The notes beneath the pieces were generated by a model that was not told the origin of the DNA, made no database searches, and was given only the letters and a program-made list of their open reading frames with translations. The position numbers and the translations under genes are program-made. This document shows, one piece after another, positions 25,306 through 64,000 of a stretch of DNA of 64,000 nt. This DNA is from a phage, in sequence record PZ452598.1. The stretch is one strand, 5' to 3'. Every line of letters starts with the position of its first letter. Within the stretch, counting starts at the first letter, position 1.

Positions 25306-25338
25306 CTACTATACCATAGTCTTGTCAGCTTGTAAACT
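25306..25338 (-). promoter_or_regulatory. early promoter (-35 GTTTAC 25332-25337)
   Basis: GTTTAC overlapping gene 41 stop, -10-like GGTATAGT. Confidence 0.45.
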
Positions 25339-26764
25339 AAAATTTTAATTCATTCGCCAAAGCATCTAACTGAGCTCGAGTCGATTCATTTCTTTGATAG
25401 CGATTCTGCTCAGCCTGAATCTGTTGTGAACCTGCTACTTCGTTCACTTCAGTTGGAGTAGAATCTTGTTCAATTTCTACCCATTTTTGATTTCCTTTTT
25501 GAACACCCATCAAAAACTTATTCCACTTATTCTTATCACCATATCGTGATTTGATTTGCTTAATGAGTTGTTGTTCAGCAGCTGCTAGCTCCTCGGTTTC
25601 AATGACCGCAAGCATAAAATCGGCTGTTGCTGGAAGACCGGCAGATTCTGCAATATCGCTCATGTTAACATCGGAAGAGTCCCAAGCTTGTTTACCAACC
25701 TGTGCTGCAGTCCAAAGAACAGTTTCGGTTTCAACAGCCAGAGCACGTAATTCCTCTGCAATAGCTTTAACAGTTGTGTAACTATTTTCTGAATAAACTC
25801 TAATGCGGCAAGATTTACAAATACCTAGATAGTCGACAATAATGATTGTTGGAACAAAATTCTTCTTGAGCTTCAATTCGTTTAAAAGTGATCGAAATGT
25901 ATTAGCGTCTGCTCCACCAGTAGGATACTGTTTAACGATTAAACGACCAAGAGTAGATTTCTCACGCCATTTTTCCATTTTTCCTTTATACTCAGCGTAA
26001 GAAATATGCCCATCATCAATGTCATCAAGAGAAACATCAAGCATATTAGCGTCAATACGTTTAGCACAGACTTCTTCTGCCATTTCCATGGAAATGTAAA
26101 GAACATTATGTCCGAGCTGTAAATAATCTGCCGCTAATGAACACAATCCTAATGATTTACCAACGTTAACGCCAGCCATTAAAACGTTCAGTGTTCCAGT
26201 TTCAGCTCCGCCTTTCGTAATTTTGTTCAGAATTCTGAGTTTAAATGGAACCTTACGAGCTTTATTCATATAAGATAGCCAACGTGCTTCGTAGTCATCC
26301 ATCCAATCATGACCAACGTAACTATCAAATGAAATTGATAATGCCTGGCGCATGATGTCAGGAATAGCACCAACATCCGGCATTTTCTTATTTCGTTTTT
26401 CCGGAGGAAGCTCAGCATTAGTTTGAATTTCGATTATTTTAGACGTAGCATTAAACATCGCCCTTTGCTGAACATATTTTTCTGTTTCTTTTACTAACCA
26501 GCTGTGGTCTTCCGGAGAATCAGCCAGTTTTGAAATAAGTGTTTTTACACCAGAATATTCTGTTTCAGTAAATGAACTATTTTCTAATGCAACATTTAAC
26601 GCATTAATAGATGGAACGCTATGGTACTCATTAACATGAGATTTAATTAATTTGAATGTATTTTTAGCTGGACCACTTTCAAAATATTCTGAATCCATAT
26701 ATGGCCAAACTTTTGAAAAATAAGCTTGATCAAATATGAGATGAGAAAGAATAATTTCTACCAC
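25337..26764 (-). CDS. 41: replicative DNA helicase gp41 (DnaB-like, 475 aa)
   Basis: Walker A GVNVGKS and DnaB-family organisation; 475 aa. Confidence 0.9.
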   Translation of the reverse strand: MVEIILSHLIFDQAYFSKVWPYMDSEYFESGPAKNTFKLIKSHVNEYHSVPSINALNVALENSSFTETEYSGVKTLISKLADSPEDHSWLVKETEKYVQQRAMFNATSKIIEIQTNAELPPEKRNKKMPDVGAIPDIMRQALSISFDSYVGHDWMDDYEARWLSYMNKARKVPFKLRILNKITKGGAETGTLNVLMAGVNVGKSLGLCSLAADYLQLGHNVLYISMEMAEEVCAKRIDANMLDVSLDDIDDGHISYAEYKGKMEKWREKSTLGRLIVKQYPTGGADANTFRSLLNELKLKKNFVPTIIIVDYLGICKSCRIRVYSENSYTTVKAIAEELRALAVETETVLWTAAQVGKQAWDSSDVNMSDIAESAGLPATADFMLAVIETEELAAAEQQLIKQIKSRYGDKNKWNKFLMGVQKGNQKWVEIEQDSTPTEVNEVAGSQQIQAEQNRYQRNESTRAQLDALANELKF

Positions 26765-47171: not shown

Positions 47172-47642
47172 TTAATCATGTTTCCACACCCCATCGGTAT
47201 TTGACCAAAGTCGCTGATTATCTGATCCTCGCCACAGCTTTTTGGTCGGAAGATTTTTCTCATACTTCCCATCAATAATAACATCAACATATTTAAGCAT
47301 TTCTAGTTGTTTAATATCTTCAAACTTATATCCTGTCCACAACCAGATATCTTTCTCCGGAAATCTTGCTTTAACCCAAGAAACTAAATTTGAAATCTCT
47401 TCTCGGTTCTGTGGATAAAGTGGGTCACCGCCGGTTAAGGTAAGGCCTTGGATATACGATTTGCTTAAATGGGACGCAAGTTCTTTAACGGTATTCATAG
47501 TGAATAACTGTCCGTTACGAGCATTCCAAGTACTACGATTATAACAACCTTCGCATTTATGCAAACATCCAGTGACGAAGAGAACGACCCTACATCCAGG
47601 GCCGTTAACGAAATCGCATGGATAAATTCTATCATAATTCAT
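47172..47642 (-). CDS. nrdG: anaerobic ribonucleotide reductase activating enzyme NrdG (radical SAM, about 156 aa)
   Basis: CxxxCxxC cluster motif GCLHKCEGCYN; start taken at internal Met MNYDRIYP. Confidence 0.85.
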   Translation of the reverse strand: MNYDRIYPCDFVNGPGCRVVLFVTGCLHKCEGCYNRSTWNARNGQLFTMNTVKELASHLSKSYIQGLTLTGGDPLYPQNREEISNLVSWVKARFPEKDIWLWTGYKFEDIKQLEMLKYVDVIIDGKYEKNLPTKKLWRGSDNQRLWSNTDGVWKHD

Positions 47643-48264
47643 CTTTATATTTCCAAGTATATCCCTTATGAATAGATTGAATTCCTTTGCAACATTTATA
47701 AACAGCAGAATGAAAAAATCCTGCATTTCTTATTTCAGTTGCTCCAGTTAGTTCTATTGTATTTCCGTCTGGTGAATAGCCAATAACCGTTTTGGTGTTA
47801 AAGCGATTTCTAGAACTATTTTTGATATGCTCTTTATGATTAGTAGACAAAGTTCTTCCTGTTAGCCCATCAGATATCCTTTTTCCAAAATCATCAGGAA
47901 GAGTTACTTTAGACCTAGCTATGCTCATTAGCTTCTTAGTTTTATCGCTTCTTTTTGCGCCACGCTGATTTTCAAATTTCTTAGCTTTTGCATACGCGTA
48001 TTGTGAAGAAGTAACTTTTCTATGCTTACTATTACTCATTATCCAATATGCATCATACATCTTTCCACCATATATTTTAGCCAATAAATGGTGAGCAGTA
48101 TAGTGGGCCTTATAAGTTAAAAATACTAAGTTGTCTAAATCATCTGAACCACCCATACTTCTTGGAATTATATGATGAAGTTCATACCCGGCTTTAGTTT
48201 GACGGGGCTTAGATGGGTGTTCAGCAGAATTAACTAGATTTGAATAGATTCTGTCATAATTCAT
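47632..48264 (-). CDS. mobD: HNH homing endonuclease-like protein (210 aa) between nrdD and nrdG
   Basis: HNH signature HHIIPRSMGGSDD...NLVFL. Confidence 0.7.
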   Translation of the reverse strand: MNYDRIYSNLVNSAEHPSKPRQTKAGYELHHIIPRSMGGSDDLDNLVFLTYKAHYTAHHLLAKIYGGKMYDAYWIMSNSKHRKVTSSQYAYAKAKKFENQRGAKRSDKTKKLMSIARSKVTLPDDFGKRISDGLTGRTLSTNHKEHIKNSSRNRFNTKTVIGYSPDGNTIELTGATEIRNAGFFHSAVYKCCKGIQSIHKGYTWKYKDEL

Positions 48265-51111
48265 TGGTGCTTAACCCTATGCATGATTTCTTTATTTTTA
48301 CCGAGATTAAATCCGCGTTCGTTCGGATTTCCCAAATAACCACATGTTCTTCTTATGGTATTCATCTTTTTAGGATCAGTTTCTCCACAAATAGAACAAA
48401 CAAATCCGTTTTCAGTAGGAGTCATTTCATGGGTACTTCCACATGTAAAACATTTATCTACTGGCATATTAACACCAAAATAATCTAAATGCTGTGCAGC
48501 ATAATCCCACACGGCCTCAAGACCTTTTAAGTTATTTTTCATATCAGGAAGTTCAACATAAGAAATGTGACCACCTGTCGCAATGAAATGATATGGCGCT
48601 TCACGAGAAATCTTTTCAAACGGAGTAATATTTTCTTCTACTGAAACATGGAAACTGTTAGTGTACCAGCCTTTATCGGTAACATCTTTTACGCTTCCAT
48701 ATTTTTCTGTATCGAGTTTACAGAAGCGATAACACAGGTTTTCAGCAGGAGTCGAATATAAACTAAAAGCAAATCCGGTTCTTTCAGTCCACTGTTTAAG
48801 ATGAGCATTCATTTTAGTTAAAATTTCTCGTCCAATATCACGACCGACAAGAATATTCAATTCGTGAATACCAATGTATCCTAAAGACACTGAACTTCTA
48901 CCGTTTTTAAATAACTCAATTATGTCGTCATCAGGTTTAAGACGAACCCCGAATGCACCTTCTTGGTAAAGAATAGGAGCAACAGTAGCTTTAACTCCTT
49001 TTAAGGAACTAATTCTACACATCAAAGCTTCAAAACATAAATCCATTCGTTCATTAAATAGCTCAACAAATTTCTGTTCATTGAACTGTGTTCCAATATA
49101 AGAATCTAACGCGATGCGAGGAAGATTCAGTGTTACAACACCAAGATTATTGCGTCCATCAAGAATTTCATTGCCAGTCGAATCTTTCCATACGCTCAAG
49201 AAACTACGGCAACCCATCGGAGAAACAGGAACAGATGAACCAGTGATAGCTTTATTGTTCTTAGCTGAAATAATATCAGGATACATCCTTTTGCTTGCGC
49301 ACTCTAGAGCAAGCTGTTTAATATCATAGTTCGGATCGTCTTTATAAAGATTAACACCTTCTTCAACGAACATAACAAGCTTAGGGAAAATAGGAGTTAT
49401 CCCATCACGACCAAGACCTTTAATACGATTTTTCAGAATTGCTTTCTGAATCATTCGTTCAGTCCAGTCAGTTCCCGTACCAAATGTAATTGTTACAAAA
49501 GGAGTCTGTCCGTTTGAACTGAATAACGTGTTCACTTCATCAATGTGTTCAGTAGAGTTCGCTACTTCTCTACCCGTTTATATGAAACAATGTAATTTGG
49601 ATAATTGTCATCTAAACACAAATCTTTAATACGACTTGGGTGGAGTTTTAAATCTTTAGCAGCATCCACAAATGATTTATAGATATTGTCATTTATTTTA
49701 ACATATTCTGGGACGGGATGAATTGTTATTTTTATATCTATAACATTTGGATGATTACTAACCTGTTCTTCAGAGCATTTAAGAAATTTTGCAGCTGATT
49801 TAAAACTTCTAAATTTATTTCCGGATTTTAAAGCTATAGAAACAGTCTTTTTAGCCGTTCTACTACCAATATTATTTTTAACATGAGCTTCACTTCTACT
49901 ATTATTTTTATAATGCTCAATCAATTTCTCTCGTATCTTATCTTTATGTTTTAAAGATAAGATTTTACCTTTATGGGCATTACTAAGTTTTTGCTTATGT
50001 TCTTCTGAATCCGGATATTTGTTAAATTTATATCCACCTATAGATTTATTAAGAATAAATTCGTTATTAAAATATTTCCTAATAAGCATTTCTTCATGTT
50101 TAAGGGCCGATTCATAAGAATCAAAAACTTGAAGAATTATCCACTTAGCTTTATAATCTTTAAGCTTTTCTTTAACAAGCTTAGATGACGAATTGTATTC
50201 TTTCCAATTTGTATCTTTACCATATATAGTTTTGAATTTTTTAAAACCTATATAAAAAGACTTATCAGGAAATCTTACCATATAGGTAAATGCTACAGAA
50301 TTGGCAATTTTTAAGCTTTTTCTTAATTTCCATTTCATCGTTTCACCTCGTATTCATATTTATACGAGGATAAACAGCTGCATGTCACCATGCAGTTCAG
50401 ACTATATCTTCAACTCTTAGAGTTGTCTGCCGTTTCGGGTCGCTTGACCCTACTCCCTTACATTCATCAGGGATAGTCGTTGGGCATTTACAGCTACTGC
50501 TGATTTAGCAACGGATTGTCTCAGTGAGAGTTTCCCGTTTTAGGCAGATTTTACATGAGCTTGACTTACGTTAACTCATAAGCTTGGAATGCATCGTATA
50601 CGTCTTTTTCTGTTTTAGATTGAGCATAATTCAACGCATCAGCGATTTGCCATTTTTCTGCATCCTCAATATGTTTTGCATAGGTGCGTTTAACATAAGG
50701 AGAAAGTACTTTATCTACATTCGCAAAAGTCGTTCCGCCGTATTGGTGAGAAGCAACTTGCGCAGTAATTTGTGCCATAATTGCAGTAGCAACTCCAATT
50801 GATTTAGGAGTTTCAATCTGCGCATTACCAAGCTTAAATCCGTTTTCAAGCATTCCTTTTAAATCTACTAAACAGCAATTAGTAAATGGAAGAGCAGGGG
50901 AATAATCAATATCATGCACGTGAATAATTCCGCTTTCATGCGCTTTCATAATAAAAGACGGGACCATATTTTTGGCAATGTGTTTAGACACAATACCAGC
51001 CATAAGGTCCCGTTGAGTTGGAAAAACACGAGAATCTTTATTAGCATTCTCGTTTAAAAGGTCTTTATTAGTTTTATGAATTAATCCTTCAATTTCTTTT
51101 TCAATTGTCAT
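48261..51111 (-). CDS. nrdD: anaerobic ribonucleotide reductase NrdD, split by a group I intron (exon 1 about 50566..51111, exon 2 about 48261..49540)
   Basis: Two collinear ORFs (181 + 424 aa, about 605 aa total) separated by about 1 kb containing I-TevII; C-terminal glycyl-radical region in exon 2; splice sites not mapped exactly. Confidence 0.85.
49562..50338 (-). CDS. I-TevII: intron-encoded GIY-YIG homing endonuclease (258 aa)
   Basis: GIY-YIG-type N-terminus (FTYMVRF...FYIGFKKF); located inside nrdD intron. Confidence 0.85.
   Translation of the reverse strand: MKWKLRKSLKIANSVAFTYMVRFPDKSFYIGFKKFKTIYGKDTNWKEYNSSSKLVKEKLKDYKAKWIILQVFDSYESALKHEEMLIRKYFNNEFILNKSIGGYKFNKYPDSEEHKQKLSNAHKGKILSLKHKDKIREKLIEHYKNNSRSEAHVKNNIGSRTAKKTVSIALKSGNKFRSFKSAAKFLKCSEEQVSNHPNVIDIKITIHPVPEYVKINDNIYKSFVDAAKDLKLHPSRIKDLCLDDNYPNYIVSYKRVEK
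50357..50364 (-). promoter_or_regulatory. late promoter TATAAATA inside the intron, upstream of I-TevII
   Basis: TATAAATA on minus strand about 20 nt upstream of I-TevII ATG. Confidence 0.55.
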
Positions 51112-51581
51112 TTTAAACTCTTTCTAAGCTGCTTCTTGAATGAAGCTATTAATTGTGTTTTGGTGTCAGATTCATTATATTCAAATCCTCTTTGAAGCAT
51201 CTCGGCCATCATTTCCTCTTTTCCTAAACGAGAAAATTCCTTTGATTTATCTCCAACAAAGTTAGGGTGAATATTATTTTGGGTGTAATCGGATTTTAAA
51301 TAAGTAAGTAAATTTTCTAACCATTCAAGATAATCAACACCTTGTCCCTTTAAGCCAGAACGATTAAATTTATGCTTCATTTGACCTTCTGCAGCATTGC
51401 ATAGATTACAAAGCAATCCACGCACCTTTCCTGCTTTTGGTCCATTTAATTCATGGTCATGGTCGAGGTGATTAGCTTGAACATCAGGATTTAGTTCTCG
51501 TTGGCAAATTAAGCATTTACCGTTTTGTGCATCATAAAATTTCTGTTTTTCTTCTTTGTATAATTTGCCAGTCAATAACAT
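51108..51581 (-). CDS. 49: endonuclease VII gp49, Holliday junction resolvase (157 aa)
   Basis: Zinc-binding CLICQ...CNLCN and HNH-like HLDHDH core; 157 aa. Confidence 0.9.
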   Translation of the reverse strand: MLLTGKLYKEEKQKFYDAQNGKCLICQRELNPDVQANHLDHDHELNGPKAGKVRGLLCNLCNAAEGQMKHKFNRSGLKGQGVDYLEWLENLLTYLKSDYTQNNIHPNFVGDKSKEFSRLGKEEMMAEMLQRGFEYNESDTKTQLIASFKKQLRKSLK

Positions 51582-52552: not shown

Positions 52553-52857
52553 TTTTCACACCACCAACTGCTTACTTCAAAATCGGGTTCGCCATGTTCC
52601 CAGAACCAGGGGCCGATAGGAATCCACTTACCTTCATCGGTGACGTCATATTCTTCGGATTTAAGCCCAACGTATCGCCATTCGACTTCATAAGCGGTAC
52701 CACCGATTACAACTGTGTTCTCGCCATACGGGTTAGACACAACAAAGTCTATACCTTCTGCTTTAGCTAACCAAATCATGTATTCATAGAGTTTATATTC
52801 CAGGTCGCCTTCTGTTCCATCGCCTAGAAAAATAATTTGTTCATTTAATTCTATCAT
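52549..52857 (-). CDS. hypothetical protein (102 aa)
   Basis: ORF track. Confidence 0.5.
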   Translation of the reverse strand: MIELNEQIIFLGDGTEGDLEYKLYEYMIWLAKAEGIDFVVSNPYGENTVVIGGTAYEVEWRYVGLKSEEYDVTDEGKWIPIGPWFWEHGEPDFEVSSWWCEK

Positions 52858-62168: not shown

Positions 62169-62630
62169 TCATTGAGTTTTAATTACTGCTTTAGAAGCCT
62201 TTCCTGGTAAACGACGACTGTTGATAATTGCCATCCTACATTGAAGTGACGGGTCTTTGAACTTCTCGTTAGGTTTACAAACTGTAAATCCAAGCCAAAG
62301 ATTTCCATCTGTGATTTCTAAACGTCCAGGACGATATTCAACCCCATCAATAAAATCCTCGTCAATGTCAGGACGCGGAGGCATACTCAGGAATTCATTA
62401 ACTTCTAAAACATGGTCTTTTATTTTATGGAATAATTCAAAAACGTATGTCTCATCAATCTCCCGTTGAATTGCGCGATCAAGAAGATGTTGAGAATATT
62501 TTAGATGAAACGATGAGACTCCTGCTGCTTTTGATGCCTCACGAATCTCATTGTTAATTTGACGAAACTCCGACTCAAAGTGACGACGAAGCTTATTTCG
62601 ACGGATAAAAACTTCTGTATTGATAGTCAT
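62169..62630 (-). CDS. regB: endoribonuclease RegB (153 aa)
   Basis: 153-aa ORF; length and sequence match recalled T4 RegB. Confidence 0.75.
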   Translation of the reverse strand: MTINTEVFIRRNKLRRHFESEFRQINNEIREASKAAGVSSFHLKYSQHLLDRAIQREIDETYVFELFHKIKDHVLEVNEFLSMPPRPDIDEDFIDGVEYRPGRLEITDGNLWLGFTVCKPNEKFKDPSLQCRMAIINSRRLPGKASKAVIKTQ

Positions 62631-62655
62631 GTTATTCTCCTCTTAACTGATAGAA

Positions 62656-62689
62656 AAATTATACCACAGTCAAGAGGAAAAGTAAACAG
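62656..62689 (-). promoter_or_regulatory. early promoter for regB (-35 GTTTAC 62682-62687, -10 TATAAT 62658-62663)
   Basis: Consensus early promoter on minus strand. Confidence 0.55.
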
Positions 62690-63010
62690 TTATTCTTTAA
62701 ATCTAATCAATTTATTCATAGACTTTGAAACTTCGGCACGAACCTCATGTAGATTTTTGAGCTGTTCAAGACGCTGCGTATAGTAAGCAATTTCATCTTC
62801 TTCGAGACAGTCCTGCGAATCTTCTTTAAGATAACGTGCATAGTCCTGGAAAGCGTTACGGACTACTTCCTGGAAGTCATCAAGACTTTGAATTTTCTTA
62901 GGAGCAACAGATACACGACGAGGGGCAGTATAATACTCATAACCAAACCCTGCGCTTAATTGAGCCATTAGTATTTTTCCTCTGGTTGGAACACTGCACG
63001 ACAAGCCCAC
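62690..63010 (-). CDS. hypothetical protein (106 aa)
   Basis: ORF track. Confidence 0.5.
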
Positions 63011-63270
63011 ATACTGGCTTCTTTGAGTTTCGTTTTAGCAATAGTTAACTGATCGAGACTTTCAGCATAATTCTTCGCGAATTCACAGTCTTCGCAATTA
63101 TCTAGTGCTTCCCAGAATTCATCATATAAAGCATCAAAGATAAGTCCTAAACGAACTTCAGCGTCTTTAATAGCATTTACTTTACCGATTTTCTCTTCAG
63201 TATGTGGTTTATAACCCTTAATATCTTCAATCATATTTGACTTCCTCACCAGTACATAAATCGTATTCAA
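62968..63270 (-). CDS. hypothetical protein (100 aa)
   Basis: ORF track. Confidence 0.5.
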
Positions 63271-63448
63271 CTAAACGAATAGGTTCATGAATGCCATAGC
63301 CTTGAACAGAAATTTCTGTCGTAGGATAAATTCCATCAATATCACCCATATTCCACGCTTCATTAAATTGCTGTTCGCCTGAGTTACTAAACCACTCGGC
63401 GAAAGCATTTAGCACATCTTCAGAACCTTCAATAATTATCTTTGCCAT
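63227..63448 (-). CDS. hypothetical protein (73 aa)
   Basis: ORF track. Confidence 0.45.
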   Translation of the reverse strand: MAKIIIEGSEDVLNAFAEWFSNSGEQQFNEAWNMGDIDGIYPTTEISVQGYGIHEPIRLVEYDLCTGEEVKYD

Positions 63449-63810
63449 TACAAACTTTCAGTAAAGGTACGAGCGATAACGTCGCGCTGCTGTTCCGGAG
63501 TCAGAGAGTTAAAGCGAACTGCATAACCGGATACACGGATGGTCAGCTGCGGATATTTTTCCGGATGCTTAACTGCATCTTCCAGAGTTTCACGACGCAG
63601 AACGTTAACGTTCAGGTGTTGACCACCTTCAATTTTAACTGTAGGTTGTGGCTCAATTTCAATTTCACGGGCATGCAAACCATAGAAAATTTCTGGGTCT
63701 ACAAAAGAGTCCTCTTTAAAGGTTTTAGAGACAATAATTCGTGCTTGAATACCATCTTCAAAATAAATAGTACCTTTATGTGTGCCTTCAAGAATTTGAT
63801 ATGCTTTCAT
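63448..63810 (-). CDS. autonomous glycyl-radical cofactor (GrcA/YfiD-like, 120 aa)
   Basis: C-terminal glycyl radical motif RVSGYAVRF and PFL-type tail; GC-rich 3-prime half. Confidence 0.85.
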
Positions 63811-63817
63811 ATAAACC

Positions 63818-64000
63818 TCAATTAGAAAATAAATTTATCCAAGATTGTTCTTTAATTAAAAATGGCTCAGAATCATATGCCATTAAACTTTGCGTAATTA
63901 ATCCTTTAAAAGGTCCATCAATAAATTCCATGGTAAAATATGGAATTTTATTCATTAGCCGTGCATTAGGAGCAGTGCACAAAACTCTGCATCCTTTGAA
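63818..64000 (-). CDS. hypothetical protein, partial: stop at 63818-63820, start beyond window end
   Basis: Open frame ...[49 protein letters not shown]. Confidence 0.5.

Follow-up and report, generated by a model that had tools for sequence, protein, structure and literature searches.

Close to one end of a 64,000-nt stretch of phage DNA (PZ452598.1, in the following called the window) lies a small gene whose product resembles, in its C-terminal part, the autonomous glycyl-radical cofactor GrcA (YfiD) of enterobacteria. The locus raises the question whether a fragment of a host gene was recently captured and fused to a phage-derived N-terminus, as an earlier note on this DNA had suggested, or whether a gene that was already resident in the phage was partly overwritten by its host counterpart. 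The window was identified as phage T4 DNA, and the ORF is 100% identical to positions 62481-62843 of Escherichia phage T4 OZ209023.1. The gene is vs.6, which encodes the protein Y06I and is located in the cluster denV - vs.8 - vs.7 - vs.6 - vs.5 … regB - vs - tk. In other records, the same gene is named vs.6, "autonomous glycyl radical cofactor GrcA" or "pyruvate formate-lyase". The positions of all features are listed in Table 1.

Table 1. Features of vs.6 and of other regions of the window, numbered from its first nucleotide.
Feature	Position	Strand	Basis or remark
vs.6 (Y06I), GrcA/YfiD homologue, 120 aa	63448..63810, including stop	(-)	ATG-to-TAA ORF
GAGG Shine-Dalgarno sequence	63816..63819	(-)	5 nt before the vs.6 ATG, read from the sequence
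Diverged, AT-rich phage GrcA N-terminal half	63633..63810	(-)	GC3, 49% nt identity, hhalign E=6e-8
Probable host-derived tract, gene nt 179-356 (codons 60/61-119)	63455..63632	(-)	178/178 nt identical to E. coli grcA nt 200-377
Codon of Gly95 (RVSG95Y), predicted radical glycine	63526..63528	(-)	Motif position and alignments; corresponds to GrcA Gly102 and PflB Gly734
Phage-type 3' end, AGT TTG TAA (E. coli: AGC CTG TAA)	63448..63454	(-)	Alignment
vs.5, downstream ORF	63227..63448	(-)	Its ATG overlaps the vs.6 TAA
NrdG-like radical-SAM activase (nrdG)	47172-47726		
HNH endonuclease ORF	47632-48264		
nrdD 3' exon	about 48261-49535		Own RRTCGY radical loop
GIY-YIG/NUMOD1 homing-endonuclease ORF	49562-50338		Between the nrdD exons
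Group I intron core	50378-50609		Between the nrdD exons; Rfam, 105 bits
nrdD 5' exon	about 50566-51111		
Endonuclease VII ORF	51108-51581		
GC-rich stretch	25567-25759		475-aa helicase-like ORF (25337-26764)
GC-rich stretch	52554-52762		102-aa ORF by a glutaredoxin-like ORF

Vs.6 is a free-standing small protein with its own Shine-Dalgarno sequence and ATG, and the neighbouring genes are unrelated small phage ORFs. A scan for promoters and terminators around vs.6 gave no signal above chance. Residues 61-101 match the Pfam family Gly_radical (PF01228) with 66.8 bits at a cut-off of 22.2. The top NCBIfam model, TIGR04365 ("spare_glycyl"), is matched with 153.3 bits, which lies under the curated equivalog cut-off of 170 bits because the N-terminal half has diverged; the bacterial GrcA of the metagenome contig OKVR01000246.1 reaches 228 bits. 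Among solved structures, E. coli GrcA (PDB 6OWR, E=8.6e-42) is the nearest, and the C-terminal part of PflB (residues 697-759) comes second. Overall, Vs.6 shares 74% of its amino acids with E. coli GrcA. Over residues 61-120 the identity to GrcA residues 68-127 is complete (60/60), which bears out the earlier proposal that the C-terminal ~60 amino acids are of the GrcA/YfiD type. Judged by its sequence, vs.6/Y06I is a phage-encoded autonomous glycyl-radical cofactor.

The two-part build of YfiD, consisting of a disordered N-terminal half and a structured radical domain, is matched by Vs.6, and the RVSGY loop is common to E. coli GrcA/YfiD (P68066; NMR structure 6OWR) and the phage protein. Vs.6 differs in its length of 120 instead of 127 amino acids and in its N-terminal half, which is detectably homologous but only about 35% identical over 40 columns, with the first ~21 residues unaligned. 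Furthermore, vs.6 is part of the phage early-region cluster vs.8-vs.1, whereas bacterial grcA is located in the arrangement ung-grcA. The C-terminal domain of PflB (1H16 and others) belongs to the same fold family and carries the same motif, residues 58-120 of the T4 protein aligning to PflB 697-759, but Vs.6 is a free-standing protein of 14 kDa. The models of GrcA2 and GrcA3 (NF008341, NF038360) match the C-terminal domain with 93-107 bits, below their cut-offs; these proteins of about 80 aa lack the N-terminal half, unlike Vs.6.

A compositional seam within the gene, which had been noticed earlier, was confirmed by sliding-window GC content, codon composition and alignment with E. coli grcA. 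In 90-nt windows, the GC content rises from 0.31 (63690-63810) to about 0.5 (0.48-0.53 at 63450-63630). Between the 5' and the 3' half of vs.6, GC3 increases from 0.18 to 0.42, compared with 0.42 and 0.43 in the halves of E. coli grcA. A maximum-chi-square scan of vs.6 against E. coli grcA placed the breakpoint at gene nt 179. Upstream of it, codons 22-59 show 49% nucleotide identity to the E. coli gene and 40% at third positions; downstream, codons 61-120 show 98.9%, with 59/60 identical third positions (98%), so that the identity to the host is high and not low. The chance of an identical run of 178 nt was calculated to be ~6e-21, given the 74-77% identity of unconverted phage alleles to E. 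coli. The GC content of this tract is 0.489, compared with 0.342 for the window, and is reached by just 0.05% of all 178-nt windows, in two other places. For these two GC-rich stretches (Table 1), megablast found no counterpart in E. coli genomes.

Over 185 nt, the 3' half of vs.6 shares 98.9% of its nucleotides with E. coli grcA, and it has a match of at least 95% in 5,426/5,426 complete E. coli genomes. Neither the 5' half of the gene nor positions 1-63440 of the window gave a megablast match in this set of genomes. By megablast against E. coli genomes, the tract is thus the sole host-identical DNA in the window. The two differences located 3' of the tract (AGT TTG vs. AGC CTG) are synonymous and both C>T, and they could be later mutations instead of a junction; the AGT near the right edge is common to the T4 and Mosigvirus alleles. 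Since both junctions lie inside the ORF and the last two codons as well as the overlap with vs.5 are of the phage type, the arrangement fits a gene conversion of the 3' half.

The donor of the T4 tract is the grcA gene of Escherichia. Among the bacterial grcA genes, identity to the tract declines along the host phylogeny, from E. coli (98.9%) over Escherichia sp. MOD1 (97.8%) and Citrobacter (91.7%) to K. pneumoniae (about 88%). Genera other than Escherichia were ruled out as donors by an identity of at most 92%, and E. coli pflB by a nucleotide identity of 79.4%. The grcA genes of E. coli and K. pneumoniae are 84% and 88% identical in their two halves, i.e., they have diverged to a similar extent in both. 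The uniformity of E. coli grcA, the outlying composition of the tract in T4 and the decay of identity along the host phylogeny show that the transfer went from host to phage.

The contig search covered 80 grcA loci, with no Klebsiella, Salmonella or E. coli among them, and Klebsiella grcA was taken from chromosomes in PLSDB. Several PLSDB entries (CP125156.1, NZ_CP141089.1, NZ_OL790696.1 and others) are chromosomes labelled as plasmids, e.g., a 5.37-Mb K. pneumoniae "plasmid unnamed2". Such mislabelled entries are a trap for plasmid statistics, though they served as a source of Klebsiella grcA. The grcA gene of K. aerogenes was left out of the ungapped comparison because its record is frameshifted in grcA.

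As a lone query, the N-terminal half of Vs.6 has no NCBIfam match. In a profile-profile comparison with hhalign, in which the radical domain had been removed from both sides, the phage N-terminal halves matched those of bacterial GrcA with a probability of 94.7% and E=6.3e-8 over 40 columns; T4 residues 22-60 aligned to GrcA 27-67, and T4 residues 1-21 were left unaligned. Full-length homologues without a seam (GC3 0.25/0.22) were found in Karamvirus (KaAlpha, UFV01). These alleles are 74-77% identical to E. coli and encode a closely similar C-terminal domain in AT-rich codons. With no tract in KaAlpha, its divergence from T4 is equal on both sides, 27% in the 5' half and 25% in the 3' half. 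Krischvirus and T5 also carry full-length homologues, which are more distant. A full-length host-like grcA is absent from 50,697 phage records, in which alignments with the grcA of E. coli or of K. pneumoniae cover at most ~60% of the gene.

As the N-terminal halves are homologous, the whole of vs.6 can be considered an old phage-resident homologue of grcA. In the model that fits best, host sequence probably replaced the 3' half of a grcA homologue already present in the phage; it is not one of a host fragment fused to a foreign N-terminus. Of the capture proposed earlier, the recent host origin of the 3' half could be upheld (98.9% over 185 nt), whereas the fusion to an unrelated N-terminus had to be abandoned in view of the hhalign result (E=6e-8). 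In Slopekvirus CPRSA (519-883), the 5' half of vs.6 is disrupted and a 61-aa C-terminal ORF, similar to the short GrcA2/GrcA3, is annotated as grcA; this disruption may equally be a sequencing frameshift.

The T4-type tract is present at an identity of at least 95% in 642 phage records with many phage and host names, and the T4-type 5' half at the same threshold in just 479. In Nami, ST2 and mobillu, the three phages examined in detail, the left junction is the same as in T4. T4 and the Mosigvirus ST2 differ by 10.1% in the 5' half and by 1.7% in the tract (p=0.001); for the Mosigvirus alleles of ST2 and mobillu, a tract that differs from that of T4 by 1.7-2.8% stands beside a 5' half that differs by about 10% (p=0.001, 0.014). 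From the lower divergence of the tract it follows that it is younger than the split of the two genera at this locus, or that it has been refreshed or exchanged since. Mosigvirus may have acquired its tract in a separate event from E. coli or else by way of a Tequatrovirus.

Between the tract of Tequatrovirus vB_EcoM_Nami (701-883) and E. coli grcA there are 11 differences, of which seven are AT>GC changes. Two of the changes hit highly conserved residues (N>H, and I>S beside RVSGY). No donor better than E. coli (93%) was found for it in PLSDB or in the sequence panel, Salmonella considered, and an unsampled donor, gene decay or sequence errors may lie behind these differences. The tracts of Slopekvirus and Pseudotevenvirus show an intermediate identity of 81-85% and may go back to older conversions. 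No Enterobacter-like tract was found in the Enterobacter phages EkoM5VN and UFV01, whose best bacterial matches reach at most 84%. Therefore, matching of the tract to the host is not universal.

In the Klebsiella phages of the genus Jiaodavirus, the seam is even stronger than in T4 (GC3 0.22/0.60). Their tract begins at the same codon as that of T4, shares 94-97.5% of its nucleotides with K. pneumoniae grcA, including a perfect run of 101 nt in RCIP0032, and stops ~20 nt before the stop codon, where identity falls to 59%. With a 26-nt signature of ValerieMcCarty02, a phage isolated on K. oxytoca, the Klebsiella-like metagenome contig OKVR01000246.1 was found, which has the gene order ung-grcA-srmB-nadB, 57% GC and grcA at 2133-2516. 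Nucleotides 181-344 of the ValerieMcCarty02 gene (703-866 of the record) are identical to this grcA at 164/164 positions. Although the 5' halves of the phages RCIP0032 and KpV477 are the same, their tracts differ at 10 sites (5.6%, p=0.0017), including positions which separate the two Klebsiella alleles. At the protein level, the signature LEDAVKH is found in E. coli and E. coli phages and LLDAVEH in Klebsiella and Klebsiella phages. In total, 77 phage records match the 3' half of K. pneumoniae grcA with at least 95% identity. These comparisons indicate that the Jiaodavirus tract arose independently, from a Klebsiella-like chromosomal grcA.

The function of Vs.6 has been studied before. As far as the work of Wagner et al. 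(2001) is reported in PMC8683613, the PFL-activating enzyme acts on Y06I and YfiD alike, and both proteins rescue PFL that was cleaved by O2 at Gly734. Residues 1-60 of YfiD are disordered and promote the binding of cPFL and efficient installation of the radical; residues 61-127 form a structured domain which duplicates PFL 693-759 (PMC8683613). With its start at the position of GrcA codon 67 and its right edge close to the end of the gene, the tract covers the greater part of the structured glycyl-radical domain. In the infected cell, the host PFL-activating enzyme would install the radical on the glycine of the RVSGY loop, and the C-terminal domain of Vs.6 would replace the C-terminus that host PFL has lost through cleavage by O2. 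PFL rescued in this way would again produce acetyl-CoA and formate. Formate from PFL is the reductant of the class III ribonucleotide reductase, and an indirect link between vs.6 and nrdD/nrdG through this formate is plausible. The presence of these two genes in the window, also noticed earlier, was verified, with a group I intron between the nrdD exons (Table 1).

On this evidence, vs.6 is both a cofactor gene and a mosaic, which very probably arose when host grcA converted the 3' half of a grcA homologue resident in the phage. Codons 1-59 represent the old phage N-terminal half, nt 179-356 a copy of E. coli grcA, and the last two codons are again of the phage type. As the pattern of the sequence suggests, the resident homologue would have recombined with the host gene during infection in a manner resembling gene conversion. 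The glycyl-radical domain would be the sole part of the gene similar enough to recombine, with the identity seen between the unconverted alleles and E. coli (74-77%). Once a tract is identical to the host, later conversions should become easier, and this would account for a left edge that stays fixed across three genera. Since the copied part must fit the barrel of host PFL and serve the host activase, identity to the host should be at least neutral and may be favoured; the N-terminal half, which is disordered in YfiD, would be free to drift. The host-identical tract may bring a selective gain, and Karamvirus phages do without a recent tract. At the left junction, just ~8 nt of identity are found upstream (GTTGAAGG in unconverted alleles), so that an illegitimate or microhomology join could have occurred there.

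We lean, if only slightly, towards the further reading that the grcA gene of the T4 group is kept matched to the current enterobacterial host by recurrent conversion of the PFL-fitting domain, i.e., that it is a "host-tracking" auxiliary metabolic gene. This reading is based on the two perfect tracts, 178 nt from E. coli and 164 nt from a Klebsiella-like donor, and on the differing Klebsiella alleles in near-identical Jiaodaviruses.

A single illegitimate event, in which a grcA 3' fragment from degraded host DNA was fused to a phage ORF with no resident homologue and no continuing exchange, would account for the abrupt left junction, for upstream similarity at background level (49%) and for an N-terminal half that alone has no NCBIfam match. 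It is nevertheless improbable, because the N-terminal halves are homologous by profile-profile comparison and unconverted full-length homologues exist in Karamvirus, Krischvirus and T5. The right junction within the ORF, with the phage-type last codons and the vs.5 overlap kept, also speaks against it, as do the same left edge of a Jiaodavirus tract from another donor and the tracts of related Jiaodaviruses, which lie 5.6% apart and carry different Klebsiella alleles beside identical 5' halves. For the very first event alone, such a capture may have taken place. Extreme purifying selection or convergence, with no transfer at all, might be invoked because the protein of the C-terminal domain is highly conserved across phages and bacteria. 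Yet 59/60 third codon positions are those of E. coli, Karamvirus encodes a closely similar domain at 25% nucleotide divergence, the similar domain in E. coli pflB is just 79% identical, and the tract of the Klebsiella phages carries Klebsiella synonymous variants. The identity at synonymous sites excludes this explanation for all practical purposes.

The decades of T4 propagation on E. coli and the perfect identity of the tract could also suggest a transfer from phage to Escherichia, or an assembly or laboratory artefact. Either is extremely improbable, since the tract resembles the remainder of E. coli grcA in composition and stands out in T4, since similarity to other enterobacteria decays with host phylogeny, and since E. 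coli and K. pneumoniae grcA are similar in both halves (84%, 88%). Both are further contradicted by the 642 phage records of varied names that carry the tract at 95% identity or more, of which the three examined share the left junction. With respect to function, nrdD and nrdG lie 12-16 kb from vs.6 in the window, and a role in nucleotide metabolism was speculated upon by Nolan et al. (2006; PMC1524935), so that Vs.6 might serve T4 NrdD, as a spare part or otherwise, instead of host PFL. We regard this as very unlikely: the domain of Vs.6 is identical to that of GrcA and PflB-like (94 bits, PflB residues 697-759), the radical loop of NrdD is a different one (RRTCGYLGNP), and rescue of PFL has been published (Wagner et al., 2001, as far as reported in PMC8683613).

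Both gene and function have been on record since 2001, as T4 Y06I/Vs.6 (Wagner, Schultz, Bomke, Pils, Lehmann and Knappe, 2001, BBRC 285:456) is the same gene with 100% identity, and vs.6 was listed as a conserved Gly_radical ORF in T4-like phages (PMC1524935). For specialists in glycyl-radical enzymes it is textbook knowledge and no new system. What is added here is the mosaic at the nucleotide level and the comparison across phages, and recurrent host-matched conversion would be a moderately interesting evolutionary addition. In the literature searched, coverage of which is incomplete, no description of a DNA-level mosaic or of host-matched tracts in phage grcA was found. The cyanophage genes psbA and psbD reportedly exchange internal segments with the host homologue, seen as compositional patches, as Sullivan and co-workers are said to have found in 2006. 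This intragenic recombination is the closest described phenomenon to the vs.6 mosaic. The case of vs.6 differs in that the phage is a virulent, host-DNA-degrading coliphage, that identity is perfect, that one domain with a fixed left edge is concerned, and that the donors differ by host genus.

The mosaic also has practical consequences. A qPCR typing scheme uses grcA as a core-gene marker for Straboviridae coliphages (PMC12845203, 2026, Table 3). Its forward primer GAAGATGGTATTCAAGCACGAA is an exact match to nt 52-73 of T4 vs.6 and lies in the phage-specific half, so that host grcA should not be amplified. The reverse primer is located at the 3' end of vs.6, beside or partly within the host-like tract. 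When grcA is used as a Straboviridae marker, at least one primer is needed in the phage-specific 5' half. Likewise, read-mapping and decontamination pipelines may swap the 178-nt segment between phage and host. A switch of another kind was observed in the last about 280 nt of the metagenome contig OIEZ01001054.1, where the final ~20 codons of a grcA-like ORF turn to the pflB type (SLTKEQQQDVITRTFTQTM) at the contig end; the switch stems either from chimeric assembly over the repeat formed by grcA and pflB or from a true conversion between the two genes in one bacterial genome.

For the biology of the T4 group, the tract distinguishes the half of GrcA that has to match the host, namely the radical domain, from the half that may drift, namely the cPFL-binding N-terminal half. 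In addition, vs.6 is a compact natural system for measuring recombination from the host into a virulent phage. If host tracking is true, a virulent phage that degrades host DNA and carries modified cytosines would still take up host sequence where there is about 180 nt of homology. The donor allele could indicate the recent host genus of a T4-like phage and, if host tracking is true, would be a readable record of host use.
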